A stretch of 34,580 nucleotides of DNA from Streblomastix strix (lineage: Eukaryota). Position numbers and translations under genes: made by a program. Shown piece after piece: positions 1-34,580 of this stretch. Every line of letters begins with the position of its first letter. Within the stretch, counting starts at the first letter, position 1. The stretch lies in contig SNRW01000051.1 in assembly GCA_008636045.1 (NCBI GenBank), positions 1 through 34,580 on the forward strand, written 5' to 3'. The notes beneath the pieces were generated by a model. The model worked only from the letters and a program-made list of their open reading frames with translations, did no database searches and had not been told where the DNA came from.

Positions 1-27
1 TCAAACAGCAGCAATATTACATATGTA

Positions 28-1089
28 AGCAGTATAGAATGAAGAAGTTTGGCGTAACTTCAAAATCTTATTCATTATAATCAATTTTTCCACGATTTTA
101 GTACATACCCCGTCAATTTGCTATTTTCCTTAGAGCGGAAGCACATACATTAGTATGATTCCATTAATCGTAGGAAAATGCACAAATTGATGAAATAGAC
201 AAAGCGTGGATAAATTGATTATAATAAATATTAATTTGAACTTAGATGGATCCGCTCAGGAGCGACATCCATAATTTTATTTAATAAAAAATATTGTATA
301 AATTTTATGAACAATTTTCATAAGTGCAAAAATCTTAATTTTGCATGAATGTGAAAAACAGAAAAAAATATAATTTTTTCTCTACGCTTTGAGTTGAGTG
401 TATTATATCTTGAATTTTTAAAATTTATATTTTTATAAAGATTTAAATTTATTTTATATCATAATATTTCAGAAGCATCCATACGTGCCGATAAAAATTA
501 AAAAAATTAGAAATTCTCAATTTTAGCGAGTAATTTTATTTTATTATGTCATTTTCCAATAAAATTGAATAATAAATTTTATTTAATAAATAAATTGAAT
601 GGTAACTTTTTATTTTAGTTGAGATACGCGTGTATAATATGAAAAAAAAAATTAAAAAAAGATTTTCTTAGAAATATAGATTAAAAATATATATTTTTAT
701 TAGTGATTTACATTCAAATATTTAAAATTAAACAAAATAAATTAAATTAATAATAGTATTAAATGTATATCTTGCAAAAATCAAGAATTTCTTTTTTTGT
801 CAATTTTCATCGGCGCGAACGGCTGTTTAAGAAATATTATGATATAAAATAAATTTAAATATTTTAAAAAATATAAATTTTAAAAATTCAAGACATAATG
901 CACTCAATTCATAGCGTATAGAAAAAATTACATTTTTTTCTGTTTTTCACATACGTGCAAAATTAATATTTTTGCACTTATGAAAATTGTTCATAAAATT
1001 CTTACAATATGTTTTATTAAATAAAATTATGGATGTCGCTCCTGGGCGGAACCATCCACTTACGGCAAACATTCTTCTTCTGAGCAATG
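28..1089 (+). repeat. Left TIR of the Polinton (28-244 plus 1063-1089), interrupted by a foldback MITE
   Basis: 28-244 matches the reverse complement of the right end with ~11 mismatches in 217 nt by manual count. Similarity resumes after the insert (CGGCAAACATTCTTC...GAGCAATG). Confidence 0.93.
245..1057. mobile_element. Non-autonomous foldback/MITE-like DNA transposon with ~285-bp imperfect TIRs
   Basis: GATGGATCCGCTCAGGAGCGACATCCATAATTTT (245) pairs with AAAATTATGGATGTCGCTCCTGGGCGGAACCATC (1056), and the inverted match extends ~245-530 vs ~771-1056. ACTTA is duplicated at 240-244 and 1058-1062. The other two TIR copies show the empty site GAACTTAC. Confidence 0.9.
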
Positions 1090-1378
1090 ATAAAACCTTC
1101 GCAGCATCAATGATGCTAATTAATTAATAAAAATAAATTAATAGGGGTTTCACTTATTGACATTTAAATAATTTTTATGATATGTTTCCTATATGCGTAT
1201 TATATCACGTATATGATTTAACATAAAATATAGATTTGATGCTTATTTTTTCTTTGTTTCATTATTTTTAATTTCATTATTAAGTCATTAGTATTTTTAT
1301 TGTAATTTTTGTTCAAGATCTTTATTATATTCATTCATTTTTTTGTCCATTTTGAATAGATAACAAAAAATAAATGTA

Positions 1379-1996
1379 TCAATATAAATCAAAATCATTG
1401 CATTCCTATTACTCTTATTCTAATGGTTGTTCTTAAATGATTTATTATGGCTCCTATTAAATTTATTACGGCTCTTCCTTTTCAACTATCTATTTTGACT
1501 ATTTGTTTCGTTTTGCTTTTAATTTATATTTCTCTATTTGTTTGATAGCATCTAAATGCTATTGATTAATAAATGAATTTTTATTTCTTAATTTGACTAA
1601 TTCTTCTAAATCAAGTTGTGGATTAGTATAATTAATTTATGGAGTTTTTGATATTTTTACAACCCTTTTTCTAATTTATTTCTTTAATGGTTTTTCTCTA
1701 ACTTTGCTTATGGAATCGTCACTTTCAACTTAATCTTCGTTCTGTTCATAAGATATAAAATCTTCATCTTCTATTTATTTTTAAGATGCTTTTTAAACGT
1801 TTTTCTTTGGAGCAACCCCTCCTCTAGCTTATAACACTAATTTATTCTACTCTGTTTAAGTTAAATTTTTAAGTGTCTTTTTTCCTTCTTCGAACACTTT
1901 AATATCTTTATTAATTTGTATGACATATCCGTTGTCAAAGTATACAATATGTGTTCCATTCTCTATTAAATTCTTCAATACGTGTCGTAAGTCCAT
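1379..1996 (-). CDS. Polinton hypothetical protein, 205 aa, Lys/Gln/Glu-rich
   Basis: Open ATG-to-TGA frame in table 6: MDLRHVLKNLIENGTHIVYFDNGYVIQINKDIKVF...EEPQQIQQEPQQ...FDLY*. Confidence 0.75.
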
Positions 1997-2073
1997 TGGA
2001 ATAATTTTAAATTAAGAAAATGATAAAGGGCATAGAAAGTAATTAAATTCGCAAGTCAAAATCTAAAAAATAA

Positions 2074-2742
2074 ATGTCTGAGATTAAACGTAAAGAACTA
2101 ACTTATGAAGATAAAATTGGATTGCAACTGATCGATAAGGCTATCAGTAGGATTAAATCAATGCCAGCGGTTGATGAATCCATCAAGCCTAAAGAAAATG
2201 TAACATAAACTGATAATGAAATTATTACATCAACGCTTGAATAATTAATCCTAACAGAATAAAAAATTACTAAATATGAGTGTAAATATAATAAAGATAA
2301 ATATAAACAAATTGATAGAACAACAGCATAGGGTGAACCTGATGAAGTAGTTAAAAATACTTATCTTTCTCATCCAAATCTCGCTGTAATGAAATTCATT
2401 ATTAACTGTTTATGGAAATCGGTAACAACAAGGAAAAGAGGAGATGATTTCATATTCTCATCAGATATTTTTATTAAACTTTGTTCATTATTTACTTAAG
2501 AAAATGAAGATGACATTGAAATAATATTAGAAGAACAATTGATTTAGTCACATTCATGCATAGGAAAATCATATGAATAGAAAGTTTTGATTCGCGTGAT
2601 CTATGTATTAATTAAAAACGTTAGAATATCAGTTATTGATAATGTATTATTCAATTCTATTGAGAAACTGTATCGTGTGAACAAAGACTCTGTTCGTTCA
2701 TCTGATGCTCCTACATCAGAGATTACCAAAGATGATTTTTGA
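2074..2742 (+). CDS. Polinton hypothetical protein, 222 aa
   Basis: Open table-6 frame MSEIKRKELTYEDKIGLQLIDKAISR...YLSHPNLAVMKFIINCLWKSV...EITKDDF*, divergent from the previous ORF. Confidence 0.75.
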
Positions 2743-2791
2743 AATAATTATTTTAGATGTCTAATTTTTTACTATTTATTTATTTTTACCT

Positions 2792-4056
2792 ATAACCAAA
2801 ATTCTTTCACAATCCGAAATACTTAGAGGAAAATTGCTCTTGAAACCTTAAATTATCGCAAAGGAAATATGCGTTGAACCAATATATTAATGTAACGATG
2901 ATTTCTATTAACGAACAGTAAATTAATATGGTAAACCATACGATAAGCTATTAAAGCGTTATGGAAATAATCTATGGAATCCATAATTAATTTATATAAT
3001 GATCGAAAAAAGAAATAATGAACATATTGATGATACAATCAAATAGTATAACTAACAAATGAAGGAACTTAGTGATAGAACTAATCAGCTTCCAATATGT
3101 AACTTTACTGATGCTGAAGCAATTAAATTATATGAAATGAAACATGCAATTAACTATATGTAAGAACAAACAAAATATAATTAATACGGATAATGTGGAG
3201 TTAAAAATGAAGTTAATTGTATATAAACTACGTTTGATGATCGATTATTTTTTGCAATAAAAAGGATCAAAACTTAAGTGATTTAGATATATTTGATGAA
3301 GAAGAATAATCTATGTAATAAAAACAGGCAATTAAATTAATATAATTGTAGAAATAGTAATAAAAATAGATAAATGATAGGAATAATTTATTTTAAATCA
3401 TTGATTCAGAAATAATAATATACTTTAATTATTTGAGTTAATTCTTTAGAAATTCATTCGATTTTGTTAATTTGCATTCTGATTAAATTATAGGTGGAGT
3501 AAAGATATTTTTATAACCTATCATAGTTGGTAAAATTATTAAATAAGGTGAAACAAGTAATTAAATACTATTAGCTAATTGAGATATTACAGATAAGGAT
3601 TAATTAGATTAAGAATTTATTGAAAATGCACGTTATTCATCAATTGCTTATGGAATATATGAATCACGATCATGGAGCATATTAACAACATAAAATAGTA
3701 GAGTATATATTTCACTATAAATAACTCATTTTAATCCAGATACATTATGGTAATCAGGATATACTTTATTCCCAATCGTTGATAATGCTATAAAACCAAA
3801 ATTCAGTGGAACACCAACTAACATACCATTAAATGCAATAATATATGTGACTAAATAATCTAATAATCCAGTAGCATTGACTAATGTAGTTGCTATTGAT
3901 TATTACATTAATACTAATGGTAATGTTATAATTAATACATATTGTTCGTTTTGGCTACCTGATGGTTTTGCTATTTAAGAATGTGATTCATATGCTATTC
4001 ATAATTAGTCGGCTAGTCGACAAATTTAAAAATATACAAATGAATCCGATTAATGA
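2792..4056 (+). pseudogene. Decayed second fibre-like protein (coiled-coil N-part, fibre shaft motif, beta-rich C-domain)
   Basis: Frameshift near 3250 and in-frame TGA at 3580-3582 (LLAN*D, probably from GGA). The motif DQIIGGVKIF...KIIKQGETSNQILLAN(G)D resembles NQTITGVKTF...NEILLADG in the 6426-8438 protein. The start is uncertain (ATA at 2792 follows the TTATTTTT motif). Confidence 0.55.
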
Positions 4057-4184
4057 AACAATCATCTATTCTATAGAATAATTGAACTTTAATTGGTATG
4101 CTATCTTTAAACAATTTGGAAAGTAGCGATTAAATAAGGGTGCGAATCAAAGATATGCAAATGAAAAATAATTATTTTTGCTTT

Positions 4185-6129
4185 TCAACCAGCATTAAAC
4201 GTACTTCCTCCAATCTCACCAATACCGTCAATATTTAACACTTACTGATCAGGATTATTATCAAATGTAATTCGCATAAATGCATCACAAAAATAATGTA
4301 GCATTGGAGTAATAGATGCTTTAGTTGGATCAGGATAACTTCCCATAGCAATAAATTCTTTAAAGTCATTTCAGTTATATTTTTATTTATCTTTGTACTA
4401 TCTAATACTCATTTAGTCAAATTATCATGTAAAATAACTTATGTATTTGTTCTTACACCTAGTTTTGAAGAGTTATATCCTCGCACAAATGAATCATTAG
4501 TTGCCAATTTTTATACAAGCATATATTTGTTACGATATAGTGTTTTAGTAACTTTTGTCCCATCAAATAATATAGATATAGCAAATACATTTACATCTCC
4601 ACTTCCATAAAAACCATCTTTATCAGTGCAGTTTAAATTTTTAAATGTAAGTGAATGATACAAATCTGATGGGGCACTAACATCATTTTAATCAACGAAA
4701 CAATCAAACATTAATCCATTAACGGTATGTGTTAATGCTTCAAATGGTTAAGTAACTACATGTCTTTAATCAATAATTAAATCAAAATCATAAAAATAGT
4801 ATAGGATAAAACCAAATTGGATACTATGGCATGATAAATGTCATGAATAGTGATTTTATATTAGAGAATGACGTAATACTTTACATAGCACAACTTGTTT
4901 CAGTAAAACCACTAAATGGGAAATTTGATGATTAAGATCTGAATACTTAGGTAGGGAAATTTACTATTTTTTACTTTTTAATCATGTTAACTATTGCTTC
5001 ATCATTTTCAACATTAAAACATATGTTCTATATCTCCAATTTTTCAAATTTTGCATTGTTAATTTAACTGATACTATTCTATGGTCCTCTCTAATCATTA
5101 CCAGCATTTTACATATTAACTATTCGTAAATTAAATTTCTAATAAGAAAATACCCCATCAGCTGTAGGTTCTTTTAATAGATATACTATGTCGGGTTTCT
5201 CAGGTAGAATCATGTGATAAGCCAAGTGTTTGTTTTATATTGCATCTTATTTGTTAAGCCAAACTACCTTCAAATCCTATAGATAATCTTATATCCAAAG
5301 TTATAGAAATAGTGAAGCATAATTCCTAGTAATAACAGGAAATGAATTAAAGATTGAATTTAATTAGTTAAGATCAAGATCACCACTAAATGTAGTATCG
5401 AAGTGAATTTTAAAATGCCATGGAGTTGTATCACATTTTGCATCAATATCAAATAGAGGCATATCAATAAATATTCCACAATGATGTTTACCACTAATTA
5501 TGCTTTCTAGTGGAGAAACACTAACGCTATTGCTTGAATATAAATCACTCAAAGAATTAGAACTAATAGCAGCATTTTCTCTAGCATATATTGAAGTTCC
5601 CCATAATGCAGTGGCATCACGAATCAATTGAAATTGGCGAAATGGTCCACACGCAGTGGAGAATCTAAGCCAAAAACGTAATCGATCAGAATTATCAAAT
5701 CCATCAGCTTATTTTCCATAATACTTTTATGCGCTTTATTTCAAATTTTTTATAACAGGAGCTTATGAATCTACTTTACCATTGAAGTTAATTCTCTTAT
5801 TTGAATCATCATCTTCAATATTGGTTTCATTTAATTATATCGCGAAAGTATTTGCAGGAATGGTAATTGTCCAATTCACTTAGCATGTTTATACCATTGA
5901 ACACGTAGCAATTCCCCTTGCTCATAGAGGTGCTCTAGTATATTTTACTCCACTAGATGTTTGTTCATTTACTGGTTAATCGGAGAATTATTGCTTGGAA
6001 ATTGAAAATTATCCAGCATGAATAGTTAATGTTTTTAATACTTCACCTAATTATATATAGCCAGCAACGTAATCAGAGTGTTACATTTTTTTGCAAACGG
6101 GCTATATAATCACTAGATTTGAATGTCAT
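4185..6129 (-). pseudogene. Putative major capsid protein (divergent double jelly-roll), ~645 codons, disrupted
   Basis: Long beta-rich reading MTFKSSDYIARLQK...FWLRFSTACGPFRQFQLIRDATALWGTSIYAREN...MLHYFCDAFMRITFDNNPDQQVLNIDGIGEIGG, with several frameshifts and TGAs. The MCP call is inferred from size, composition and context, not from a search. Confidence 0.6.
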
Positions 6130-6195
6130 TTCATTAAAACAAAAATAACTGTACTTTGATGACGATAATGATAATAAATTTTATATTAAATCAAA

Positions 6196-6405
6196 ATGGG
6201 ATTCTTCTCTGGAATAACGAATTTTGGATCGAAAATTTTAGGCGGTGTTAAGATAGCGGCGTAATGGGTAGCATCAGTATTATAAAAAGTTTTATCAACA
6301 ATATCTGGTCCTGTTGGAATGATTCATCCAGCTATTGGTGGCGCATTAGGTGATGGAGCTAATTTAGCAGGTGTTGTTGATCGATTGGTAAATAAACGTA
6401 ACTGA
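6196..6405 (+). CDS. 69-aa amphipathic Gly-rich peptide, candidate membrane-penetration protein (adenovirus pVI-like)
   Basis: Intact ORF MGFFSGITNFGSKILGGVKIAAQWVASVLQKVLSTISGPVGMIHPAIGGALGDGANLAGVVDRLVNKRN*. It has an N-terminal Met-Gly and lies between the MCP and fibre genes. Confidence 0.8.
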
Positions 6406-6425
6406 TGCAATTTATTTTTGAAGAA

Positions 6426-8438
6426 ATGAATAACACATTATCGTAACAATAAATCCGAACAGTTAGATAGTTAATCACTAACGATATTGCTTACTTTATT
6501 CAATATTAGAATTTAGGAAATTCTAGTGGTGGAACGATGTCAAACGATGAATATCAATTATTCATAGATAATAACAATGCATTAGTATACACCGCTAACA
6601 ACTAAATCGTCGATGGAATAACATCAGATTACGCTTTAAAAATAAAATCAAATGGGCTATTAACGATAAATAATTTGAAAGTGATTAATTTTGATTTTGT
6701 TGCTTAGATTAATTAGTTGATTAATTAAGTGAATTTATTATAACAATCAATTGGAACAACTGAATAGGATATCACTGATATAAAAAATGATATTGATACC
6801 ATTAATTATGAATTATCAAAATAAACACATTTCAGAGGATATTATTTATTGAATGCAGATATATAAAATTTGCCTAATTTCGCTAATGGTGATTTTGCTT
6901 TTAGTGCTGAAAGTGGAACAGTTTGGATGTTTGATGCAGCTTGATATAATGGTGGAGATATTGTGCCTGATCAAGTTACACCAACTAATGATGCAACACC
7001 ATTATCTGATGGTACAGCAACTGCTGGAATTAGTACAGATTATTAACGTGGAGATCATGTTCATACATTAAATATAACATCTACTATTCCATCTAGTGAT
7101 TCTGCTAGTGGATCATTTGATACAATTAATTAATATGAAAGAAACGATCATTCTAATCCTCTTAATATAACAACTTCATTACCTCCACAAGATAGTACAA
7201 GTGAATCAGTTGGCACAACTAATTATTACGCTAGAAACGATCATTCACTTCCAATTAATATAGAAACTAATGCTTCAAATATTCCAATAGTTAATGGTGT
7301 TGGTGTTAATGGAACATCAGACGTTTACTCTAGACATGATCACGTTAATCCATAGAAATTGACATATGACGGAAATGTTACAGCAACTAAGTTCATTAAA
7401 ACTGGAAGATTAACTTCAGATGCATTATGTGTTAATGGTGATATAAAAGCAATATCAGATATTGTTAGTAATTATGTTTACTTAATAACTAACTAAACTA
7501 TTACTGGAGTAAAAACATTTGATTCATTTAAGAAGACTAATCATACAAATAATGAAATATTATTAGCTGATGGGACTACTAAAAATGCAGTTTTAGCTAA
7601 AATTAATTATTATATAACAACTACAGAAAAATATATCAAATTGAGTTAATTTATTCCTTATATTAATATAAATAATGTTTCGGTTGAATTTTACATTAAT
7701 TGTAGGTATGCTTTTGGATTATTGCAATTCAGTTAAAATTATACCACCGAAGGAATTAGCCAATACTCTTATCATTTAGATTCTAATACATTTTTTAAAA
7801 GGGCTTATATTTTATTTTAAAGGACAGGAACTACAGATTATGGTGAATTATGGTGTAATAAGAATGCATGGAATAATAGTGTTTAAATACAATTAACAAG
7901 ATAAAATACATTTCCAGATTTGATATCAAATGTATTAGATAGTGAAATGGTTGATGCTTTACCTACGGATTATTCAAATAAGTTTTCTTTATTCTCGAAC
8001 ATGTACTAATCACCATTTTAAATTAATCCAATAGCTGGAAATTTTAATGAAGGACTACATATTGCTAATACTTCAAGTAATATATGTTTATTTTCAATAG
8101 GTTGCGATCCCAATTCAAACACTGGTGCAATAGCTAATTAATGGTCATTAATTAGAAGATCTGATGGTGCATAAGTTATTACACTAACCGCAAATTAAAA
8201 TATTTGGAGTAAAAGATTACTAATGAGTGCTGATGGAAATACATTAACTTTCAATGGATCAGTTATTGCAGGAACTGGAGTAACAAATGGTGCAACTAAT
8301 GGCACGGTTAATTATTCTGCTGGTAATCCAATCTTATGAGGTTTAAATAGTGTTGGAACAGAAGGTGGATTCTATAGTGATGGAGCTAAAATATATTGGA
8401 GAGCACATCCATTAACATTAGGATTAGTTCCTCCATGA
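6426..8438 (+). pseudogene. Fibre/spike-like protein (670 codons) with phage tail-fibre-type repeats and two in-frame TGAs
   Basis: A single frame with a coiled coil, four YxRxDHxxP-type repeats (~7040-7355), a QTITGVKTF motif and a G/S/T/N-rich C-terminus. TGAs fall at 6942 (DAA*YN) and 8337 (PIL*GL), both plausible Trp sites. Confidence 0.75.
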
Positions 8439-8468
8439 ACACTTTGACTGATGTTTATTTTTACAAAA

Positions 8469-8927
8469 ATGGATAAACAATAAACCTAACCGATCAAACA
8501 ATTATTTAATGAATTAGATAAATATCACTTTAATGATATCGATACGAATAAAGTTACAATTGAAGCATTATAAAATTTGTAAAAGAATGATGTAAAAGAA
8601 AATATCCATTCATAACTCTAAGAATTAATGAGAATCAATAAAATGTTCACTAATCAATAGCAATAAATATAAAATATAAAGAAAATGGTAAATGAAGAAG
8701 ACTATAAAAATAAGTTATTTAATGAATAGGATAAATATATCAAAAATAAATATCTACTAATTAAAAAGTCATTAGATCTAAACAATTAACCATAAAAGAT
8801 AAAGAAATACATTATCTCTGAAGCTAGTGAAAAAGAAAAATAGATTTATAATTAATTTGTGAATGATGAATAATACAGTAACTTTGTCAATTATTATCAG
8901 CTTAATTTAAAATAATAAGATTGTTGA
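8469..8927 (+). CDS. Polinton hypothetical protein, 152 aa, helical and charged
   Basis: Open table-6 frame MDKQQTQPIKQLFNELDKYHF...NLKQQDC*, preceded by TTATTTTT. Confidence 0.65.
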
Positions 8928-9514
8928 TATATTAAATATATTTGATTATCTCTTCAATTTTATCTTACATTGGTTCTAACAAACAAAAACGTTATTTTAA
9001 TTGATCATACAATTATTTTTCTTTAATTTATAGATTATTTATCTCAATTAATGCTTCAAATATTTTGAATATTTCATACTCAGATGCATTATATTATAAG
9101 TCAATACTTCTTGATAAACTATATAATTGTTCCATTCCATTTAACTCAAAAAATTTATTTAGTGGGATTATTTAACATTTTAAGATAAAGGATATATCTC
9201 CAATTAGTTGCTAATTCTAAATCTTTATTGGCTATAGCTTCGTTCAAAAATGTTTAGATTTATTCTTCTTACAGCTATGACCAATGAATACGTGGTTAAT
9301 TCTTGTCCATTTTTCTTTTGTAAAAGAATTGTATGATGCAAATCGTTATATTTAATGGGACCAATGCCATATCAAAATAACTCCATAATGTTTTTACTAC
9401 ATTAGCGGTGTCTCAGAATTTCTCCGGTATGGATGCTGATATGATTGATGTTATAAAATTAACGCCATAGAACATGTAATTCATTATTCCCATGATCAGA
9501 GATAGTATATTCAT
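8887..9514 (-). pseudogene. Putative membrane protein with two N-terminal hydrophobic segments, disrupted
   Basis: MNILSLIMGIMNYMFYGVNFITSIISASIPEKF*DTANVVKTLWSYFDMALVPLNITICIIQFFYKRKMDKNQPRIHW..., with a TGA at 9413-9415 and a frameshift in the A-run near 9150. Confidence 0.55.
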
Positions 9515-9530
9515 TTCATTATTTTTGAAA

Positions 9531-10523
9531 ATGACATTATAAGAATTATATGAAATAACATTTACTAATCAAGATCTATTGAACGAATATAAAACTGCAC
9601 CATTAACGATGAATTCATTGTTCATTATTAATGGTAATCATTATATTGTTGAAGCTGTTGGAAGTGGTAAAACAATGTTACTGTGTAAGCTAATTGTGAT
9701 TTCTAAGAAAATCATTAATCCCTTCATATTAAACTTCTCGAATTACTGTGCAGATGAAACTATGGCATTAAACCTTAATAGTAAGAACATTTAATAAACG
9801 AATGTGACTTATGGAGAAGTAATGATATTTCTACCAGAATTTGATGAGATTAAATACTCAACTAAAGAGATGTATACGTGGTACAAGATGAATGAGTAAA
9901 AATTATCATACACTAGTGATTTCATTAAGCGAATGGAAGAGTAAATCTTATAAAATAATGAGATAAAAAAGAATGAAAAACCTAATGATTATCTTAATAA
10001 AATTGCTGAACTATTCAAAGAAAAAGTAATCAAAACCATTAACACATATAATTAACCAACCAAAATATTGAGATTCAATATTCCTGCACTAATTCAAAAC
10101 GTTAGTTACCAAAAGAAATTCAAAATTACCGAAGATGAATCTAATGCTGACATAAAAATAAAAAAAATACCTATATTAGAAAAAGCTTAATTACTCCATA
10201 CGTTAATGCTCTTCGATGATATTGGTTCTAATGCAGATATACAACGATTCAGTTCATAATTATCTAAAACAATAATGCATTTGGTTAGTGATTCAAATCA
10301 TAGTAAAAATACTATTTTCTTTATCGCTTAACGTCCAACTTATTTGTTCAAGACAGCGAGGATATTAACCCATGTAATTTGCTTAGGCGTTAATCTTGGA
10401 GAAAGTGATCTAAGATAAGTGTACGATGAAAATACTATATAAAATTTAGATTTTGATGAATTCCAATAATTGTATAATACATTAAAGAAATATGAGTTTA
10501 TCATATTGAATAAGTGGATTTGA
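9531..10523 (+). CDS. A32-like (FtsK/HerA family) DNA packaging ATPase, 330 aa
   Basis: Walker A YIVEAVGSGKT (9651-9674, first Gly replaced by Glu), Walker B LMLFDD (~10203-10220) and the SNH...TIFFIAQ motif. The frame is open to TGA 10521, and the original stop may be 10548-10550. Confidence 0.88.
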
Positions 10524-10554
10524 AAATTTGAGATTCTCAAAAATAAATGAAAGA

Positions 10555-13500
10555 TCAATTATCTTAAAATGAGTAATCCTTAGATTAAAGACCGAAAATA
10601 AACGGGCAACAACTCTAGTTCTCTAGTACGATGGCTTTTGTATGAATTCCGGTAATTCCGTTCTTTTCTATAGATAACTAGCTCATCTAATGATTCTTCT
10701 ATCCCAATCTCATATTAGTGCATTTTGTTATTTTTCCTTCATTAATGCAATCGACTATCTATGCTTTAGTGATTTTGTTAGTTTTCTAATTAACTCCTTT
10801 TAATTTTATTTTTGAATTGCCATTATAATTAGTTTCAATCATGTAATTTTTAGGAGCTAATGCAATCATTGATATTCCTTATCTTTCGATCGCTAATCCC
10901 AATATCTTCTTCTCATCATATACGTCACCTCTAATCGTGGGAAAGTAATATTTAGCATTATCATTATAAAATTCTCGATCATTAATTACAGCATTAAATT
11001 ACTAAGTAAAATCTTCATTTGGATTACCACTAATTGCCCAATAAGCTGAATCAGTATCTCCTTCAATAAAATGTATGCGATTCATATCTAAGCATTTATA
11101 CATGAAATTATATATGAAATTTAGATACCAATATTTAGCGTTATCCAATACAAAGAAAGCTACTTATAATGGTGTTTTACAGCTACAGTTTTCTGGATTC
11201 ATTTGTACAAGATAACTGTCTTCTGATATCTTTTGCTCATCCATGAACGCATTAGATCTAATTGCTCTTTCTGTCTACTTCTTATTCATTATTTTTACTT
11301 TATGATATTTCTCAGTGTTCATACCATCGCTGCCATATGAACTATTCATAACTATCTTAAAGAATTATTCTTATCCTTTATTTTCATCTAATTTTGCTTC
11401 AATCCTGTTTTTTGTAAATTCCTTAATAAATGAATTGAATTAATCATGTTTATTGAACAACACTATCTATTTCACATCATCTATAATAAAATGGCAATCA
11501 TCAATTAAGAACCATAGATAATATGAGCTAAATGCCATATATTCTCCCATCGTTGATGTAAGATTAGTTAGTTTCCTTTATTTTTGATCTGTCTTAACAT
11601 TATTGTTTTTCATATGATTAAACATATAACTACCGATAGTTCTTTCATCTGTTGTGAATTCATAATTCCTTAGAATTGGTGGGAAATTAATGTAATCGTT
11701 AATATAATTCTAATCAATGTGGCCTTTAACTTCTGCTATGAATAATTAGCCATTTTCTGTAAATCTCTTTTTGCTATTAATTATTCGCTATATTGTTTAT
11801 TTTGAATGGTCATCATTTCCCATAATCTTACCTGTCTATGATCCACACATATACATCTTATCATTAGTATACTTAATAAATTTATGTTGCTCTGATGACA
11901 TAACACTAGGATATAATGAATTGAAATCAACACCAACTACATGTGTTATTCGATGATCAGTTGTTAAAACTGTTACCTTCTTATTATCTTTATCATATTA
12001 GATACGTTTTATGAAATCAATTCCTGATCTATTAACTCGATGCATTACATTCGATAATCCACCTGTTATCCACTTTCTGACTAAATGATATACATCAATA
12101 TCTGTTAAGTTAGTTGGTAAACATCTTATCATACAATATTTACGTAATTATATGAACAATTTACCTATATTTTTATCTTTATCACTGCAGAAGCAATTAC
12201 AGTATAAACAACAGGGCTAAACATTATCTATTGAATGGCACTTTGAATTATCGATTCTATCTAATGTTGGCTTATTATTACATGTAAATTTACATCCACA
12301 AATGATGCAATTAGATTCATTGAATAATCGTTTGAAATATTCATAATCACTGTCTTTTACATTATTTTTTACATCTCTCTTTTTATGTTTATCTTGCTAT
12401 AGATATCCTTTCACTTTGCTCTACCAATATTGCTCAGTTAAATGAAATTTTTATGATTAATCTTCAAAATTAGGATATACTCCATTAATGTCAAAATCTT
12501 CATACGCTTTGGCATATTTGATAGCATTAGAGCATGCCGCCATACTCATAAAACTAAACATATCAATCTTATATTTAAATTGTAAGCTAATTAGAGTCAT
12601 TAATGGTTTGATCATTATATATGTATCTTACTCATTATAGAATTGTAGGTAATCCCATCTATTTTTAAATCGTTTTGCATCATCTAGATAAATCTAATAA
12701 TCCTTCTAACTAATCTTGGTTTTCTTTAATGATGAATTGAAATCTTCCATTGAAAATGGCTCTGATTTACTAAGTATTTCATTAACGTTATCAGTGTTGA
12801 AACATTCATCGGGAAATAATCCTTTTTTATCATCATATCCGTCACCAAAATCTTTAGCTGCCTATCTTAATTCCATTGGTTATAGATACGTTAACATATC
12901 AACAAATTTCACTTTCAAATTCAATTTTTTATGATTTACAATTATTAACTTTGCTGTTGATGAGCTACCAGTATAATTAATGATTGTCCAATCTTTACAT
13001 TACATTAATGATATAATTAATGATATATCAAATCTTGAGCTATTGAATCCAACTATTGGCACTTCAACTGAATTTGGAATTGTTATATCTATTGTCCAAG
13101 CCGCCGCTATTAGATATTAATTATCAGCATTAACTTATTCTGCTTCTTTAAATAATTAATTTAACCATTAAACTATGAAATTTGATCCATCCTATTAACT
13201 AAAGAAGATTTTCTTAATCCCTTATTTGTTTCGAATAGTTGATGCAACTGATAAAGGAAATAGTTCATACATTTAATAACTTGATTTACCAAACTTTTTA
13301 TTAACGATTTTAGGTACTGTTTCAAGATCATATGTGATGAAATATTGTGTAGGTTTATATTCATTTTCTCTACCATTTGCTAATAGATACTGAAAAGTCT
13401 TATTGTGCATGATATGTGGACAATAAGGTTTTTAGATATAATCCAGTTTAACTTTCTTAATAATTTTTCCACCATTATTCTCACATTTAATAGTGTGTTT

Positions 13501-15144
13501 CTCATAGTCTCTTGAATAATTTTTATCTTTAGGATCGAATGCTTTTAAGTTACAATGTGGGCAAAATTTAAATCCAGTTAATGCTTATTTATTAGCTATA
13601 GCAAATGCATGAGAAATCTTATTTTCCTCCCATTCTGATTCAACAACTAATATATCAATTGTCTTAATTACTTCATTTTAATCTTCCTATTAATACATTA
13701 TTTACATTTCTCTATAATAATTCTTATGTTCATTATCGTAATAGTAAATGTCTTAGTTAATTTTTAACTTTTGCGATACTATATTAGCGTATTTAGTTAT
13801 ATCTAATCAATCAAATACCTACAATAAATCAGTCATTTTTCAACTCTTAGAATCGAATGGTATTACTAATACTTAAACTAAATAATCTCTAATAATGCTT
13901 ATAATTGATTCATTTCTATAACTTTTCTCCTATGTATCAGGATGTAATGCTTTTGTTACTGCTGCTATATAGCAATTGTTATTATTTCCAGTATTTTTAT
14001 ATATCACATTTTTGTGATCATTATAGTGAAAATCGATTAATTCTTTCATTCTAGCTCAAACAATTTACGGTTAAAGATTAAATGTCTTGATTAACATTGA
14101 ATAGATAGCTATGAATCTTTACTTTGTACTATCTATTATATAACTTTACATATTAATTATCTCAGCTTTAATATATTGTTAAAACTCTTCAATAACATCT
14201 TAATTTTATATAACTTTAGGAGAATGTTCTTATATACGCGTATCTCCAGGTAAAATATATATATTCAACTTAAATTTAATCATTCTAATCATGCCTAAAT
14301 TCTTCATAAATGACTCCAAAATTGAATTGTTTCTTGAACGCTTAATGGTGTTATGCTTCATAAACTTCATCTACAAACATCTCAATAATTGATAATGATT
14401 AGATAACATTGTTATAATGTAATTGATTTAATTGGCCCCGCTATTCATCAATTTAATTTATTGTTCGTTCACGATTGAAACCTGTTCTTGCACTATCAAC
14501 TTTATCAATGAATTATTCCATATTCTCAGGTTGAAAATACAATATAAAACCTGCATCATTTTCTATTTAATTAACGTCTTTTCCATTATCCTGATTAATT
14601 TTATCTTTAATCTCTTTATTTTATTGTGCAATTATTTGGTATTGAATATTCGCTTCTTATTCTTCTTCCATTATTCTTCTAGCTTATTCCTATTCTTCTA
14701 TGATATAATTAGTCCAGAAATCATTAGCTTATTGTTACTCTTATTATTAACGATATTCCAATAAATCCTATTTATATTGGTTCTAATGATAATGAGTTAA
14801 ATCTTAATATAATTATTGGTTCTATTCTTATATCTCATCATAGTAGTTATCAGCTTATTGTTGCTATTATTCTCTACGATATTCCTATAAATCTTAATCG
14901 TATTGATTCTATTTGAAATGATTAATCATATCTCTTGCTTATACGACTTACATATTGTATTAATGTACTTATTTTAGATGTGCTTTCAATTCATAATAGT
15001 TACTTCTTCCTTATTTATTACAATCAATCTTGTTTAAATATTCATTGAGTTATTCTTTATGTTAATCTATTTTAATGATTCATTGACGTTTTTGTTGTTG
15101 ATCTTGATCAGCTTAACAATCTCCGCTTTCTTCAGGTAAACCAT
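10555..15144 (-). pseudogene. Protein-primed family B DNA polymerase: decayed N-terminal terminal-protein/vOTU-like region plus intact exonuclease-HNH-polymerase core (10555-13806 open)
   Basis: Motifs ExoI YDLET, ExoII GFNSSRFD, ExoIII FYNEQD, motif A DFNSLYPS, motif B KIVMNSSYG, motif C EGDTDS, PKNY and KLKGV. There is no TGA in 10555-13806, but stops occur at 13807, 13840 and 14056 and frameshifts occur further upstream. Confidence 0.95.
14726..14935. repeat. Two-copy 126-bp-period tandem duplication in the pPolB N-terminal region
   Basis: AGCTTATTGTT...CGATATTCC.ATAAATC occurs at 14726 and 14852, encoding QDLLEYRQQQEQQQANDF and DLQEYRREQQQQQADNY. Confidence 0.7.
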
Positions 15145-15191
15145 TTGTTAAAAATAATAACCAAATATAGAACAATAATAATTTAGACGCC

Positions 15192-16662
15192 TCATTAAAA
15201 TTATACCTCTAACAATAAATTATTATACATATCTATATATTACATAGGTATTTTTCTTCCAAACTTATCATATAATGTAAACACTAACGTTTTGTTCTAT
15301 CCTATTAAGCATTATTGACTCATCATATTCTATCCCCATAGTACTGGTGCATCAATCAAATTTTGTTTAAAGCATACATTAAAGAACCCATTACCACCAA
15401 CTGATTACATAGTTATTCCTTATAATTGATTTGATTCACAAATTATTAACATTTATGGATACTCTAGAAAATTCCCTATATATTGACAGAATATTGGTAA
15501 ATCAACTTTTAAGCTTTCACTATTATGTTTCATTTAATGGAACCATACTTCTAGATCAATTTACTTAATTGCTGATGCTAAATTAACAAATTAATTAGCG
15601 CTATTTTCATTCAATCCTTTATATAGATCTTATCCACCAACTAATTGAACATACAGATTTGGTGAAACTATTATACGATTTGCCAACCAATAAATGTTAT
15701 TTTATTAACAATAATCAGTCACAACTTATGGTATAAATTATCCATAATAATTAGTTCTTCCATCAGCTGTATAAACATCTTACCATTCGCCTATAGATTA
15801 TGCAGGTAATGGACTGATAATTCTAACTGGAAATGTGTTAATATTATTAATGATTTATTACATTGTTTATTGTTATACATTAATCGGTTAAGTATCAGAT
15901 GTAGTAAATATTCCATTAGTATTTATAACAACTTACTTACAAAATAGATATCTAATTGATGGACCATTCCCTTTTGTAAAATGTTTTGGCTAAATAGATG
16001 TAATATAATTATTTGATGTAGGGCAATATAATGGTATTAATCTAATCATTCGATATAACTCATTAACTGTGGAATCTAAGATCCAATAATGATAAAGAAT
16101 TGCATCGATTCTAAGATTAATGCAATTGATCGCTGAATTCACTAAATCTTATCCATAATTCTAGTTTAATGGGAATAGATTATTCTAAAGTTTTTATACA
16201 TGTTCATTCATTGAATTATTGAAGCAAATTGCGCCGCTATTCAAAGTTGATTATGCTCTAAAATATTTCTCTGTTGTATCTGTAAAATTATCATATTAAG
16301 TTAGTGTTATGTATAGCAATTATGAAGTATATTTATAGCCCAGAATTGTTTGATCACTAATATATGCATTATTTAGAGCTGTATTCAAATTAATACGAAT
16401 TGGTTGTAGTCTATCTAGTAATTAGCAATGAAACAGATCTTCTCCTATCAATTGTTTGAAATAGGTTTTCCTTGAATAAGTTGATACTATATTATGCTAT
16501 ATTTCTATATATAGTCGTTATTCAAGTAATATGTTAAATTAATTGTTATGTTATTTATACTATTAACTTAAAACTTTATCAACCGCTAGGGATAGTTGCC
16601 TATCATTTTATATAATCCTTATCTGAATCTTAATTGATAATTTGTAAGCCAATATTAGTCAT
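15192..16662 (-). pseudogene. Putative minor capsid (penton, single jelly-roll) protein, ~490 codons, N-terminus disrupted
   Basis: The C-terminus TLVFTLYDKFGRKIPMQYIDMYNNLLLEVQFQ* fits the hxhxLxDxxGRx...hxLxhxF pattern of Polinton/PLV pentons. TGAs and frameshifts occur in the first ~55 codons. Confidence 0.65.
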
Positions 16663-16692
16663 TTTATTAAAAATAAATTAGATCAACATCTT

Positions 16693-17061
16693 TCATTTAA
16701 ATACTATATCAATTTCATTGTTGCTGATTAGCTATTTTCTGAAGAAATTTCAATAATTTCTTTTAATTAATCCATCTTGAGGTGTTTGTTATATTAATTT
16801 AGTATAAATCTCATTTCTATCTCAGGATCATTCTTTGTAGCTACTGATACCAGCTAATTCAGAAACATTGAATAGACCATGAATTCTTCTCCTCTTATCC
16901 GTTAGGCTAGCCGCTTCGCAGTTATTTTTGCTATTATTTTTATTTCGAATAATATTATCAATTCATTAAGGCAATTATCAATAAAATACTTGAAGCGATT
17001 ATCAGTACATCTAAGATTGCATTGTATGTCATTTGCTAATAACTAAAATTATTATTAACAT
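16693..17061 (-). pseudogene. Small hypothetical protein (~120 aa), frameshift at the start
   Basis: Open stretch LANDIQCNLRCTDNRFKYFIDNCLNEL...KNDPEIEMRFILNQYNKHLKMDQLKEII...LIVFK*. The ATG at 17061 is out of frame with it. Confidence 0.5.
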
Positions 17062-17068
17062 TAATAAA

Positions 17069-18224
17069 ATGTCTAAAAAAGAGGAATAGTAAGAATAAGA
17101 ATAAAGGATTATAAAGTATCGTAAAAAGGCTGGTAAAAAGGCATAAAATGTAGAAAAATACATTACCTTAAGTTGAGAATATAAATTATTTCATGACATT
17201 AAGATAGCCATTTTAATTTAGAGGTAGTGTAGTCAGACAATAATAAATATAAAAAGTACCGATATTTTATCATAATTAGGCAAATATTAATTTGTTTAAA
17301 GTAGACTTGGAAAAATATAAAAATAATAATTAATTGAGTAAATTTAATAAAGAGATTAAGAAATTACAAAAGCTGAAGCAAATGCTGCAATTTTTGGACA
17401 TAAGTCTACAACAGCATAGTAACGAATATATGGCTCATATAACGGATATGATTTGATAAATGATGCAAATTAAACAAATGATATTATTTTTATATGGCCT
17501 AGATCTATAAGCTGGAATCGATAATAGATTAGCTAATTAAAATTATTTAATAAATATTAGTGCACGAATAAGTGTAGTAAACTAAGATATAGGATCTAGA
17601 TAACTTCCAACTGCTCCAAATCATAGTATTGATGATAGTTAAGAATAAATCAGGCGGTAGTTTGCTGGAGAACCATCTGTAGCATATAGTGATATTAAAT
17701 CAGATGGTGAACTTAGGGAAAAAGATTATCCTGATAATTAATCAACAAACTCAGTGCCTAATTATTATAGCTATTAATATAATGATAATCAGCCGTTTAA
17801 TTATCCTTTAATTTAATAAACTGATTTTGCTCCACCACTTACAATTGCAGAAGTGGAATCAGAAAATAATCATAATAGATGCATAAAAGGATAATATTTA
17901 CTTCTTAGTGGCTAAGAAATGAATAAAAACATGTAATATTTAGGAGGATTAGATTGATTATTAAATCCAGTAAATAAATACTATGGAAAAACACCATATA
18001 TACCAAAACCAATTGACTATTATCTATAAGATCGCACATTAACTGTAAGATAAAGAAAACGATACTTAGACAAAGAAGAACAATTAAATAAACCCAAGCC
18101 AAAAATAAACTACATTAGAGCAGGTGAAATGACTAAATAAGTTGAAGCATAAGGAAAATTGAAAAAATAAACAAGAAGAAGGAAATCAAAGTCTCCTATT
18201 AAAAAAAAGTCAAAGAAACATTGA
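17069..18224 (+). pseudogene. Decayed hypothetical protein with basic N- and C-termini (possible DNA-binding core protein)
   Basis: Reads MSKKEEQQEQEQRIIKYRKKAGKK...KKQTRRRKSKSPIKKKSKKH*, with internal TGAs and frameshifts. The function is inferred only from charge. Confidence 0.5.
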
Positions 18225-18229
18225 AAGTA

Positions 18230-18469
18230 TCATTAAAGTTTCAATAAATCAAGTATCTAAATTAAAATATCATCTGATATAATGTTTTTACTTAATATAT
18301 CGATTATCGTTGATTAATCATTTGAAATTTATTGCTTAAATTATTTTTACTTAAAACATTATCTTTTCTTAGCTTCTCCACGTTATTTCTTAGCCATTTC
18401 ATATGCTTCTTATTCAGTAAAATATTTCTTAGGTCAACCAACTTTTTAAGTTACTTATTTTATTTGCAT
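18230..18469 (-). pseudogene. Small AT-hook-like DNA-binding protein
   Basis: MQIKQVTQKVG*PKKYFTEQEAYEMAKKQRGEAKKRQ...LLKLQ*. The TGA at 18434-18436 sits where Arg would complete GRPKK. Confidence 0.55.
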
Positions 18470-18508
18470 ACTTTGTTCACTTTCTATTTATTTACCAAGA
18501 AAAAATAA

Positions 18509-19669
18509 TCATTAGAGTTTAAATGTTCTCTTATATTTTTCTTTTAATGTTTCAATACTATTTGCAACGATATTTGTGTAATATATTGGAACTTCTACAA
18601 TTTTAATATCCTAATACGGTTTCTATAGTTCACATACAGCATTTGCATGCTCATATCGAATAAAAGTAGCTATTTCATTAAATTATATACGATATTTTTT
18701 TAATCCATGAGCTGTCTTTTTCAAATCAAGATGTATAGTTATTATATTACCTTTCTTTAGATCTAATAGATTATCTTTATTTTATAATTCTTTAACATCA
18801 GCTAATTCCTTCATTTTTTATCTAATATATATTCCTTCAAAATCTTCATTCTAATTTACTACATTAGGAGAGAATTTTTATTTAAAAGCATTATGTTTTG
18901 CGTTATTGTAATCATCAACTACCTATTATAATTACTTTTTAATAGCCAATAATTAAGGATCATTTTCAAACGCATCCCTAATCGTTCTAACTACTGAATC
19001 AACTACTCTATTTTTATTAATGAAAGGAGATGAATTATAGAAGTATTTTATACCAGTTTCGTGAAGATATTACTTAATCTTTTGACTTCCCACCGTTGAT
19101 TCGCCATCTGATCTAATGTTACTAACAATCTGATTTGACTTAAGTAATCTTAAACATCTAAATAGTTCATTTGCTGATTTATCTTTGATTGGAAATACTA
19201 CTAAATATTTAGTGCTAATATTAATACAAAATAGATAATGCTAAATTATTTTATTAATTGTTGGATGCATTATAAATATTACATCAATTTCCCAGCTCCA
19301 TAATTCTGTTGAGATGTATGGACGTTTATACTTCTTTAATGGTTTCAATTTAATATCTTACACTATATCGGTTTTATTCTTAACTTTACTGCTAAATGGG
19401 TTCTTAATTTTAGTTGGTTCCTATTAACTTTTTGATTTTTTTAAGGATTAACGTTTGATTTTATTCGTTCAGCATGATATTTTTAGAAATTATCAAGATA
19501 AAACTTATATTATTAAGAAATAGTTTTATCTTCGAATTATTCCTCTAAATTATTGATAGTGAATTACTTTTTAAAATACAAAATTCAAATTCTTAATGAA
19601 ATCCACTAAATTAATTTTATCAACTTTGAACGCTTTGCCATCTAAAAATTATATAATTTATTTTTACAT
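18509..19669 (-). pseudogene. Retroviral-like (rve / c-integrase) integrase, frameshifted
   Basis: Motifs WEIDVIF (D 19283-19285), YLFCINISTKYLVVFPI, IRSDGES (D 19106-19108), NRVVDSVVRTIRD (D 18998-19000) and YNNAKH. Frameshifts occur in the N-terminal part. This agrees with the 6-bp TSD. Confidence 0.88.
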
Positions 19670-19810
19670 TTATTTTATGTAATTATTATTGAAAATAATC
19701 CTTTCAAAAAATTTTAAAAATAATTGTTTGGAATTTCAAAACATTAAATAAGACATTATAATTAATTTAATATAATTTATTTAAATTGGATTATTTTTAT
19801 TATTGCTTTT

Positions 19811-20000
19811 GTCGCTGGGGTCGTAGCATAGGTGCTGAGACACCGAAACTACGGCTTAGGTGGATACGTTCGAATCCCGCTATAACCAATGTTGGATGAC
19901 ATTGAGGAGCATCCGAACACATCAAAAGTACGGATTCCTAACATCACAGCTGTGCCTGAGTTGAGGGTTGTGGCTGCAGCCTCCAACAATCATGGTTTTT
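19811..20000 (+). ncRNA. Putative RNA polymerase III-transcribed structured RNA (~190 nt) with a tRNA-like 5' domain
   Basis: A 51% GC island (91/180 nt) in very AT-rich DNA. It has an A-box-like TAGCATAGGTG (19824-19834), a B box GTTCGAATCC (19868-19877), several stems and TTTTT at 19996-20000. Confidence 0.65.
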
Positions 20001-20030
20001 ATTAAATTTTTTCATTAAATATTTTTAATA

Positions 20031-20988
20031 CAGTCAGGCGATGTTTTTCGTTATTCGTTAGCATTTTGGTTAAATTCAAATGTTTAATTTTGCGAAGACA
20101 TTACAATACTCATCGAATTTCTGTTTTACTTCATAATATAAACCCTTATTACAATAACTTTTGACACAAAACTAAGATAATTCGCTGATACGAGCGGAAT
20201 TTCGCAGATCTACAATTTGCTCAGTAACTTCCCAGATACTTCGTTTTTTTACATTTAACAATCAATAATTTTATTATTTGCATAATTACATAATATACAT
20301 ATTAAAATTATAACAATTTTACAACCAATACACTTGAACAAACAATCAAGAATTTTGGATAATTTGACTTGCAAATTTTGATAGTGCCAAAGCACAATTG
20401 CAGTTCAAACTATGAATGAATGCGAATTGTATAAGTTGACATTATTATATATTAATACTTATCAGAATTATTACTTTTTTATCTTTCAGAATCCAAAATG
20501 ATGGTTGTTTTTGCCGTCAATGCAACCTTTTAGCTTTGCAAGGTTTGTTGCCATCCACTTTTAAAAGATTATATTCATATAAAACACTTTTTATCTACAG
20601 ACATGTTCAAAATTGGAACGATACGAATTGGAGTTGGATGAAATTTTAATAAATTATACTATTCTAGCGATCTACCCAACCAATTTCACCCAAAATCATA
20701 ATTTATGTAGTTTTAATTTTTTATTTTTGTATTTATATTTTTATTTTGTGTTTAAGTACCGTTTTTTATATAAACTTTTTTTTAAATTTATTTTCGTTTA
20801 AAATCGTCGCTTATGGCAGATTCAATAATACAATTTAAGTTTAAATACATTTTTCAGCAAATTTGTTCAATTTATCGTTTCAATTTTTCATTGGTATTAA
20901 AATATTTTCTGAAATTAGCACGTATTTGGTTTTTTTGGAGTGGACTAGTAAAAAAAGCTAAAGAATAACGAAAAACGTCGCCTGACTG
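20031..20988. mobile_element. Tc1/mariner-type non-autonomous element (958 bp) with TA TSD
   Basis: TA|CAGTCAGGCGATGTTTTTCGTTATTCGTTAGC ... GCTAAAGAATAACGAAAAACGTCGCCTGACTG|TA. The TIRs are ~32 bp with 2 mismatches, and no transposase motif was recognised inside. Confidence 0.9.
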
Positions 20989-21402
20989 TATTTTTAACTA
21001 GAAAATCGTTAACTATTGTATTTCTAATTACAAATCAAATTTTATTTAATATTTCTATGTAATTAATTATTTCATATAATTTAACCATAAAATCAAAACA
21101 ATTGAACTATCATGCATGCTACAAAACAAAGTTTAATAAAAACATTAACTTTTTTCGCCAACTCCTCTTATATTTATTTTACTAATTAAATAGTAACACA
21201 GAAAAATCATAAGGATTAACGGTATAATTACTATACACCATTTACTATAACGGTTTGCTGTAATCATAAACGCATTTGAATATTTCTCTGTAGTCGCACA
21301 CTTAGATTAATTAAATACATTGGCGCTATGGATTAGCGTTTATTTATTCATGATTCACATCAGTGTTGTGGATTAATGAATATATGAACGCTTATTCACT
21401 AG

Positions 21403-21643
21403 CACTGCTCTGAAGAATGTTCGTCGTAAGTTCAAATCAATATTTATTATAATCAATTTATCCACGCTTTGTCTATTTCATCAATTTGTGCATTTTCCTA
21501 TGATTTGTGGTATCATACTAATGTATGTGCTTCCGCTCTAGGGAAAATCGCAAATTGACGGGGTATGTGCTGAAATCGTGGAAAAATTGATTATAATAAA
21601 TAAGATTTTGAAGTTACGCCAAACTTCTTCATTCTATACTACT
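21403..21643 (-). repeat. Right TIR of the Polinton (~240 bp)
   Basis: Reverse complement of the left TIR, ending ...CTATACTACT and followed by the TSD TATGTA. Confidence 0.95.
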
Positions 21644-34303: not shown

Positions 34304-34580
34304 AGTAGTATAGAATGAAGAAGTTTGTGGTAAGTTCAAAATCGTATTTATTATAATCAATTTACCCGCGATTTTGAACTTTTTTCGTCAATTTGCAAAA
34401 ATCCCTAGAGCGGAAGCACATACATGTGTATGGTTCCATTAATCATAGGAAATTGTACAAATTGATGAAATAGAACAAATGTGAATAAATTGATTATAAT
34501 AAATATGGATTTCGAACTTACCGCAAACATTCTTCAGAGCAATGTTATTAATTAATAAAAAATAAATTATTGAGGGTTAG
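34304..34580 (+). mobile_element. Left terminus (TIR) of a second, related Polinton running off the window
   Basis: Starts AGTAGTATAGAATGAAGAAGTTTG and is colinear with the TIR but more diverged. Beyond the TIR it resembles the left subterminal sequence at ~1118-1150 (ATTAATTAATAAAA..ATAAATTA..GGGTT). Confidence 0.88.

Follow-up and report, generated by a model that had tools for sequence, protein, structure and literature searches.

The window analysed here is a stretch of 34,580 nucleotides from Streblomastix strix, an oxymonad protist of the termite gut. Positions 28-21643 of the window are occupied by a 21.6-kb Polinton-type element, with terminal inverted repeats (TIRs), a target-site duplication (TSD) and genes including a candidate major capsid protein (MCP):

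22..27, left TSD, TATGTA
28..244, plus strand, left TIR, which begins AGCAGT and is an imperfect palindrome in itself
245..1056, foldback (MITE-like) insert of 812 nt, splitting the left TIR, whose sequence picks up again at 1058
1379..1996, minus strand, charged 205-aa ORF, no family in Pfam or PHROG
2020..2742, plus strand, 240-aa ORF, no family in Pfam or PHROG
3583..4056, plus strand, beta-rich segment, possible fibre-tip piece
4185..6129, minus strand, MCP gene, double jelly-roll predicted via a homologue; three frameshifts (near 6088, 4800 and 4360) and in-frame TGA at 5924 and 4411
6196..6405, plus strand, intact 69-aa ORF starting Met-Gly, with an amphipathic helix; candidate membrane-active virion peptide
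6405..8418, plus strand, candidate fibre gene for a long, repetitive beta-rich protein, interrupted by in-frame TGA at 6942 and 8337
8451..8927, plus strand, 158-aa ORF, no family in Pfam or PHROG
9609..10523, plus strand, packaging-ATPase-like gene; Walker A EAVGSGKT (in this copy), Walker B LMLFDD
10555..14953, minus strand, pPolB gene (exonuclease, endonuclease VII insert, polymerase); frameshift near 14230, TGA at 14058, 13842 and 13809; start approximate
15192..16662, minus strand, penton (minor capsid) candidate, broken close to its start by two frameshifts and a TGA (16605)
16683..16901, minus strand, short helical ORF piece, common to other S. strix copies (P0121, 80% identical)
17100..18160, plus strand, broken basic and low-complexity ORF(s), bounds approximate; P0128 is a relative
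18509..19468, minus strand, rve-type integrase; no in-frame ATG ahead of the core in this copy
19819..20000, plus strand, GC-rich island, candidate Pol III RNA or inserted SINE; A box at 19824, B box at 19868, tRNA-like 3' end to 19888, T run near 19996
20027..20992, pair of internal 41-bp inverted repeats (93%), perhaps a second nested insert
21392..21643, minus strand, right TIR, which ends ACTACT; its length of about 250 bp was judged against a second element
21644..21649, right TSD, TATGTA

Ends, nested inserts and genetic code

A preliminary description of this DNA had reported two TIRs and a perfect 6-bp TSD, and both were confirmed. The TIR pair (28-244 versus 21427-21643) spans 217 bp with 11 mismatches (95% identity), and the TSD is perfect on both flanks; given the flank composition, a chance match of 6 bp has a probability of about 0.002. 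The AGT repeat is perfect at the right end only (AGTAGT on the minus strand), whereas the left end, AGCAGT, carries one mismatch; the related second element, at 34304, opens with AGTAGT. An end motif of (AGT)2 or (AG)3 is described for Mavericks/Polintons (PMC8097293). The 812-nt foldback insert is flanked on both sides by ACTTA (240-244 and 1058-1062), and two contigs of the run X1 skip the region 232-1112 that contains it. The GC content is 0.262 inside the element and 0.265 outside, so that composition does not mark the element.

The reading of TAA and TAG as glutamine was borne out by the codon counts: these two codons account for 248 of the 314 Gln codons in 11 element segments, and under the standard code the longest open stretch per segment is just 19-114 codons. 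The GenBank entries for the element genes are already translated in the right code, labelled as hypothetical proteins, and code-6 endogenous viruses of S. strix have been published (PMC10120064), which makes the observation less surprising.

Replication genes and predicted packaging and capsid genes

The pPolB part at 10555-13806 matched two PHROG profiles, DNA polymerase with E 5e-11 and endonuclease VII with E 9e-13, and had no match in Pfam. Its context suggests the protein-primed subtype, and its N-terminal part may comprise a terminal-protein and vOTU-like region, where Cys and His residues in a vOTU-like pattern were seen by eye. The integrase identification holds weakly, with a Pfam rve match (E 1.8e-4, 22 bits) that lies under the gathering cut-off of 32.6 and is consistent with the TSD; PDB sequences gave no match. 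For the ATPase, proposed earlier as A32-like, the assignment as a P-loop NTPase stands through its homologue in the environmental contig L002 (27% identity, E 7e-25), which carries a GNIGSGKT motif and weak P-loop Pfam matches (best E 0.018), while the profile libraries, A32-family models included, gave no match to the ATPase of the element. The FtsK/A32-family name, given for its motifs, is presumptive. No Ulp1-family cysteine protease was detected by Pfam among 31 segments, nor by motif in the six frames, several ORFs being broken or without an assignment.

The MCP candidate had no sequence match in Pfam, PHROG or PDB, and tblastn against phages returned nothing. It has 294 homologues (all from S. 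strix among the 120 matches listed), and the intact members of its family are 633-658 aa long. The fold was modelled on one unbroken S. strix homologue, P0001, rather than on the copy in the window. With this model, the first 10 rows of the Foldseek search against PDB were iridovirus and mavirus MCPs (best E 1.5e-4), and the top rows against BFVD were cedratvirus, adomavirus, adintovirus and pithovirus capsids (E 3e-4 to 8e-4). In the VIA search, 9 of 50 rows aligned at least 190 residues, and all nine were double jelly-roll capsid or scaffold proteins. The model is of poor quality (pLDDT 49.7, TM-scores of about 0.2, best Z 5.5 where the usual noise level of the tool is 7-8). The family of the MCP candidate is therefore predicted, from a low-confidence model, to fold like double jelly-roll capsids, in line with the capsid role first proposed for 4185-6129.

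For the penton candidate, the language-model Atlas search with residues 185-285 of an 81%-identical homologue scored 0.97 against viral clusters and 0.96 against a cluster in which 12% of the members carry PF21507 V18-19; the whole protein P0123 scored 0.76, which is noise. Since none of the 19 homologues is a whole S. strix copy, the whole L002 protein was modelled, and this model failed (pLDDT 39.2); structure searches with it returned no capsid-specific match. The penton proposal thus keeps moderate support from the language model and none from the fold, and we consider 15192-16662 a candidate single jelly-roll penton.

The lack of a sequence-level match for the capsid, the low confidence of the fold models and the failure to detect a protease could also be read as signs of a self-synthesising transposon without a capsid, in which the two large beta-rich genes would encode something other than virion proteins. 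We regard this as very improbable, as three structure searches place double jelly-roll capsids first among the full-length matches, the ATPase and the penton candidate accompany the MCP in L002, and the penton candidate has the Atlas language-model features given above.

Condition of the copy and accessory candidates

The element had been described as complete, which is correct for its ends but not for its reading frames. The MCP, penton, pPolB and fibre candidates all carry stops or frameshifts, with breaks in at least five genes, and both host flank ORFs (1720 and 1726 aa) are unbroken. This copy is full-length but decayed, and its own genes can no longer yield a capsid, penton or polymerase.

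In elements of this kind, stop codons frequently turn out to be assembly errors (PMC10120064, section 7), and the locus could accordingly be an intact, potentially active virus, the breaks being artefacts of the short-read assembly of a high-copy repeat. A total of 15,387 run X1 contigs map to the first 20 kb, making repeat collapse possible. However, one 358-nt run X1 contig at flank-like depth is identical to 4315-4672 and spans one stop and one frameshift of the MCP; this exact contig checks two of the listed breaks, and the run possibly stems from the source sample itself. Furthermore, the two TIRs have diverged at 11 of 217 sites, the left one holds the 812-nt insert, and the breaks are spread over several genes. 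We therefore judge an intact virus at this locus unlikely, and decay the better reading.

Among the accessory candidates, the 69-aa peptide has a homologue adjoining the MCP in L001 and L002 (E 2e-4). The lytic peptide proposed previously is amphipathic and conserved in these contigs, but neither the window peptide nor that of L002, both short queries, matched adenovirus protein VI in Pfam or PDB. The proposal of two fibres was not upheld: sequence searches, Pfam and PHROG included, gave no significant match for either candidate, and tblastn against phages gave nothing for the long one, while for the short one the matches had no better than E 6-7. The fibre-tip reading of 3583-4056, based on a pattern that no tool matched, is tentative. 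As no significant fibre match, protein VI homology or Ulp1 protease was found, an adenovirus-like inventory is not established. Literature searches joining Polinton with membrane-lytic peptide or VA RNA found nothing.

The GC-rich island has a GC content of 0.48 against 0.26 for the element. It could be a host tRNA-derived SINE or a tRNA relic that jumped in, rather than a viral gene, and we give this reading slightly less than even odds. SINEs combine a tRNA-like head with an unrelated tail, and the island has this anatomy; it shares 21 nt with the 3' end of a tRNA-Leu in L004, L001-L003 have no Pol III box pair, and the element has already taken up other inserts. Conversely, no target duplication was seen by eye around the island, and 8-9 related run X1 contigs cover its 3' part, which is thus common to several copies of something. 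Rfam returned no family, and folding was no better than in shuffled sequences on the plus strand (z -1.2), with z -2.3 on the minus strand. At the default score ARAGORN found no tRNA; a relaxed-score call at 19804-19889 was set aside as no evidence, as 6 other places, mostly inside ORFs, were called too.

Relatives and proposed biology

The nearest relatives outside the host are the unclassified environmental contigs L001-L003, which have in common with the element the MCP (25% identity, E 1e-33), the adjacent 69-aa peptide, the ATPase (27%) and the penton candidate (E 1.75e-6), all four being carried together by L002. They differ in gene order and in using the standard code, with TAA and TAG as stops, and no pPolB or integrase match was found in them within 13.4 kb. 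Viral contigs were also scanned with the MCP alignment, with pPolB, with the end motif and with two environmental MCPs, and yielded no relative.

Within the host, 820 MCP hits forming one cluster, the 'Metamonada' MCP group, are reported for S. strix endogenous viral elements (PMC10120064). These have the same code-6 reading, a double jelly-roll MCP and high copy number. Table S3 of that work prints a single S. strix MCP, of the T. vaginalis DUF4106 type and 562 aa long, and the window family, compared by eye with this sequence, looks unlike it. DUF4106 was found in none of 45 members of the window family, in a search run without a positive control, nor in 17 more. Three short motifs of the printed MCP occur in 0 of the 269 proteins of the MCP search, and six locus tags of the window family are absent from the part of the supplement covered. 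The capsid family of the window is thus likely to be distinct from the published one, although it could lie inside the 820 hits.

Animal Mavericks/Polintons (PMC8097293; 10.1101/2024.03.18.585575) are alike in their AGT-repeat ends, TIRs, 6-bp TSD, rve integrase, ATPase, pPolB with a homing-endonuclease insert, MCP and minor capsid candidate, as well as in their size (15-30 kb) and in the degraded state of most copies. Compared with them, the window has no identified Ulp1/adenain protease or PZ/PW genes, sequence searches link its MCP to no known family, and its genetic code is an alternative one. Adintoviruses and MELD viruses have membrane-active accessory peptides (cupiennin-like), phage-like fibre genes, protein VI-like genes and tRNA genes (PMC8502044), and such an inventory is thus not unprecedented among Polinton relatives; the likeness to the peptide and fibre candidates is one of gene type.

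Taken as a whole, the locus most probably (at roughly 0.8) holds a full-length, mutationally broken integrated Polinton-type element of S. strix that reads TAA/TAG as Gln, encodes a capsid predicted to be of the double jelly-roll type and is likely an endogenous virus. The TIRs, the TSD, pPolB, the capsid-family model and the codon use all support the capsid-encoding endogenous virus of the preliminary description, and the element belongs to a large family of related copies; in run X1 the summed contig depth is 2,620-17,675 in the 5 bins inside it, compared with 38-477 in the 24 flank bins. From what is known of Polinton biology, the integrase would insert the linear genome and generate the 6-bp duplication. 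In an active copy, pPolB would replicate the genome from its ends by protein priming, the ATPase would fill a capsid built from MCP and penton, and the fibre-like protein and the amphipathic peptide may serve attachment and membrane entry. About four in five of the Gln codons are stops in the standard code, which would restrict the family to hosts with the TAA/TAG=Gln code.

A bolder reading would make this a second, unreported S. strix Polinton-type lineage, derived from standard-code relatives, recoded and host-locked, whose intact members would still form virions equipped with fibres and a myristoylated membrane-lytic peptide, and would express a VA-RNA-like Pol III gene of tRNA origin; we hold it to be rather doubtful. 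In general, S. strix was already known to harbour Polinton-type viruses that use TAA/TAG=Gln. What is likely new is a capsid family distinct from the published one, with standard-code environmental contigs as its nearest relatives. The prior literature found on the viruses of this host gives capsid counts and one sentence on the code only; the present locus maps a code-6 endogenous virus of an oxymonad over its full length, including both ends and the scar left by its insertion. Since the same capsid lineage has relatives with the standard code, one can study how reassigned stop codons of a host are adopted by a DNA virus and whether this restricts the hosts open to it. For an assay of entry proteins, the conserved 69-aa peptide encoded next to the capsid gene would be a simple candidate.

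Boundaries, host and genetic code of the element

We consider it very probable (roughly four chances in five) that the element at 28-21643 (21,616 bp) is a full-length, decayed Polinton-type endogenous virus of Streblomastix strix. The self-comparison of the window revealed terminal inverted repeats (TIRs) of 217 bp, with 11 mismatches between the two ends, and TATGTA flanks the element on both sides as a target-site duplication (by-chance probability about 0.002), both in agreement with the preliminary description. The AGT-repeat termini, named there as a known Polinton mark, are present at the right end (AGTAGT), while the left end reads AGCAGT. End motifs, target-site duplication and core genes are as described for Polintons in PMC8097293.

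The left TIR is interrupted by an 812-nt foldback insert (245-1056), self-complementary along its full length (78%) with ACTTA on either side; it may represent a MITE family in S. strix. A pair of 41-bp inverted repeats spaced by 884 nt (20027-20992) is a possible second nested insert. Both TIRs are also internally imperfect palindromes (arms of 44-52 nt, 102 nt apart), a structure that might let the genome end fold into a hairpin.

A second, related element begins with AGTAGT at 34304 and is truncated by the window edge (34304-34580; 83% to the TIRs); compared with this end, the right TIR reaches back to about 21392 (253 nt, 83%). A contig of the public sequencing run X2 has this end too, but next to another flanking sequence. 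Mapped contigs of public runs show an abrupt change in depth at the element boundary. In run X1, possibly the source sample, summed contig depth was 2,620-17,675 in the five bins inside the element and 38-477 in the 24 bins of the flanks, and it reached 13,410 where the final bin covers the second element. This measure differs from copy number and shows only the existence of many related sequences.

The major capsid protein (MCP) candidate has 294 homologues, of which at least 120, all those listed, come from S. strix; one shares its first 248 residues with the window. The attribution to a protist reading TAA and TAG as Gln (code 6) was confirmed: these codons make up 248/314 Gln codons (79%) in 11 element segments and 245/341 (72%) in two flanking host ORFs, and standard-code frames in the element segments end after 19-114 codons. 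Among nine environmental homologues, Gln is the most frequent residue opposite the MCP TAA/TAG codons, yet at 24 of 160 aligned positions only. Neither host ORF has a Pfam family:

22483-27645, host ORF, 1720 aa, code 6, unbroken
27802-32982, host ORF, 1726 aa, code 6, unbroken

Capsid candidates and probable decay of the reading frames

The candidate MCP gene (4185-6129, reverse strand) carries three frameshifts and two stops. Because it is broken, folding used P0001 instead, a homologue with 82% identity across the main piece, together with 45 aligned S. strix sequences picked out of the 120 homologues listed; the resulting model is poor (pLDDT 49.7). The first ten rows of the PDB Foldseek search were iridovirus and mavirus MCPs (best E 1.5e-4, TM about 0.2), the top BFVD rows were cedratvirus, adomavirus, adintovirus and pithovirus capsids, and 9 of 50 VIA rows aligned at least 190 residues, all nine being double jelly-roll proteins (best row: Z 5.5, rmsd 6.6, 253 aligned). 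These searches, individually weak and derived from one model, yet concordant, suggest a double jelly-roll capsid, as had been proposed; at sequence level, Pfam, PHROG and PDB gave no match. The GenBank model of this gene, P0003 (EZS28_000596), spans the breaks with apparently false introns, and three S. strix "hypothetical proteins" (P0121, P0127, P0128) merge pieces of adjacent viral genes.

The likely penton candidate (15192-16662, reverse strand) has two frameshifts and one stop near its start, and both its ends align with a 701-aa protein of the metagenome locus L002. The claim drew support from Atlas, where the last 101 residues of the homologue P0122 reached 0.97 to unnamed viral clusters (29/30 matches viral) and 0.96 to a cluster with PF21507 (V18-19, the Sputnik minor capsid protein) in 12% of its members; no fold match was obtained, the searches with the L002 protein model (pLDDT 39.2) being uninformative.

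Besides the MCP and penton candidates, pPolB and the long fibre candidate carry breaks; in addition, the ATPase Walker A departs from consensus and the integrase frame has no ATG ahead of its core. The element described as complete is full-length with both ends, but several of its reading frames are broken. Such stops can be assembly errors, as PMC10120064 warns. However, a 358-nt contig is identical to 4315-4672, spanning one stop and one frameshift (the two breaks covered by this check), at a depth of 22.5, on par with the flank contigs (19-23). Furthermore, the extra base near 6086 is absent from most related contigs, the TIRs diverge by 5%, and no break interrupts the long host ORFs, all of which argues for genuine decay.

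Replication and accessory genes

As claimed, pPolB matches a PHROG DNA polymerase (E 5e-11). It contains an endonuclease VII insert (PHROG, E 9e-13), a kind of insertion already known in Polinton polymerases (10.1101/2024.03.18.585575). Other S. strix proteins join the upstream region 14515-13819 to pPolB across one frameshift and three stops, and one Cys and one His in this region form, by eye, a candidate vOTU-like pattern. For the integrase, the rve match (Pfam) lies below threshold. The proposed A32 ATPase itself had no match in profile libraries, but it shares 27% identity with an L002 P-loop protein. Ulp1 protease was not found by Pfam on 31 segments or by a six-frame motif search.

The 69-aa ORF at 6196-6405 is intact and begins with Met-Gly; its helical hydrophobic moment comes to about 0.4, against 0.5-0.7 in L002, and its homologue adjoins the MCP in the metagenome loci L001 and L002 (E 2e-4). 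Of the lytic peptide claimed, a conserved amphipathic candidate stands; it possibly resembles adenovirus protein VI, but no tool matched the window or L002 copy to that protein (Pfam, PDB). The two claimed fibres (6405-8418 and 3583-4056) were not substantiated, profile, phage and structure-database sequence searches giving nothing significant. For adintoviruses and MELD viruses, PMC8502044 already describes peptides active on membranes as well as fibres, VI-like genes and tRNAs.

The island 19801-20000, a putative Pol III-like unit, is the sole 200-nt stretch in the window with GC of at least 0.42 (0.48) and holds its only A-box and B-box pair, which arises in 47/20,000 island shuffles. The 21 nt around the B box are identical to the 3' end of a tRNA-Leu of another locus (L004), a pattern picked after the box was seen. 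ARAGORN at default score gave no tRNA, and the island could also be a SINE.

Relatives and novelty

The Polinton-type kind and its code use in S. strix are already published: PMC10120064 reports 820 MCP hits, in the same cluster as T. vaginalis, and use of the host code. Judged by eye, the MCP printed there for S. strix looks unlike the window's MCP family, although overlap with the published hits is possible. DUF4106 had no match among the family members examined (45 + 17), and S. strix is absent from the passage of 10.64898/2026.10.13.758929. Possibly new are the capsid lineage together with its relatives in the standard code, the conserved candidate peptide and the putative Pol III-like unit.

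The profile search collected 211 proteins, including distant MCPs of full length (sources Logan, ENA, JGI and NCBI). The standard code is used by L001-L003, three metagenome loci (3 of 275 pattern matches); L002 has the MCP, peptide, ATPase and penton candidate in common with the element. In a quick unrooted MCP tree of 26 rows, a branch of length 2.14 (support 100) parts 17 S. strix MCPs from nine environmental ones, which would fit a code change after entry into the oxymonad line, if this direction is correct.

L002 (1-13454) also contains three paralogous genes of 200-220 aa and a protein in which the motif xTIxGxKTF recurs. Between its genes TTTTTCxxxAAGACGATTAC is repeated in either orientation, a possible promoter.
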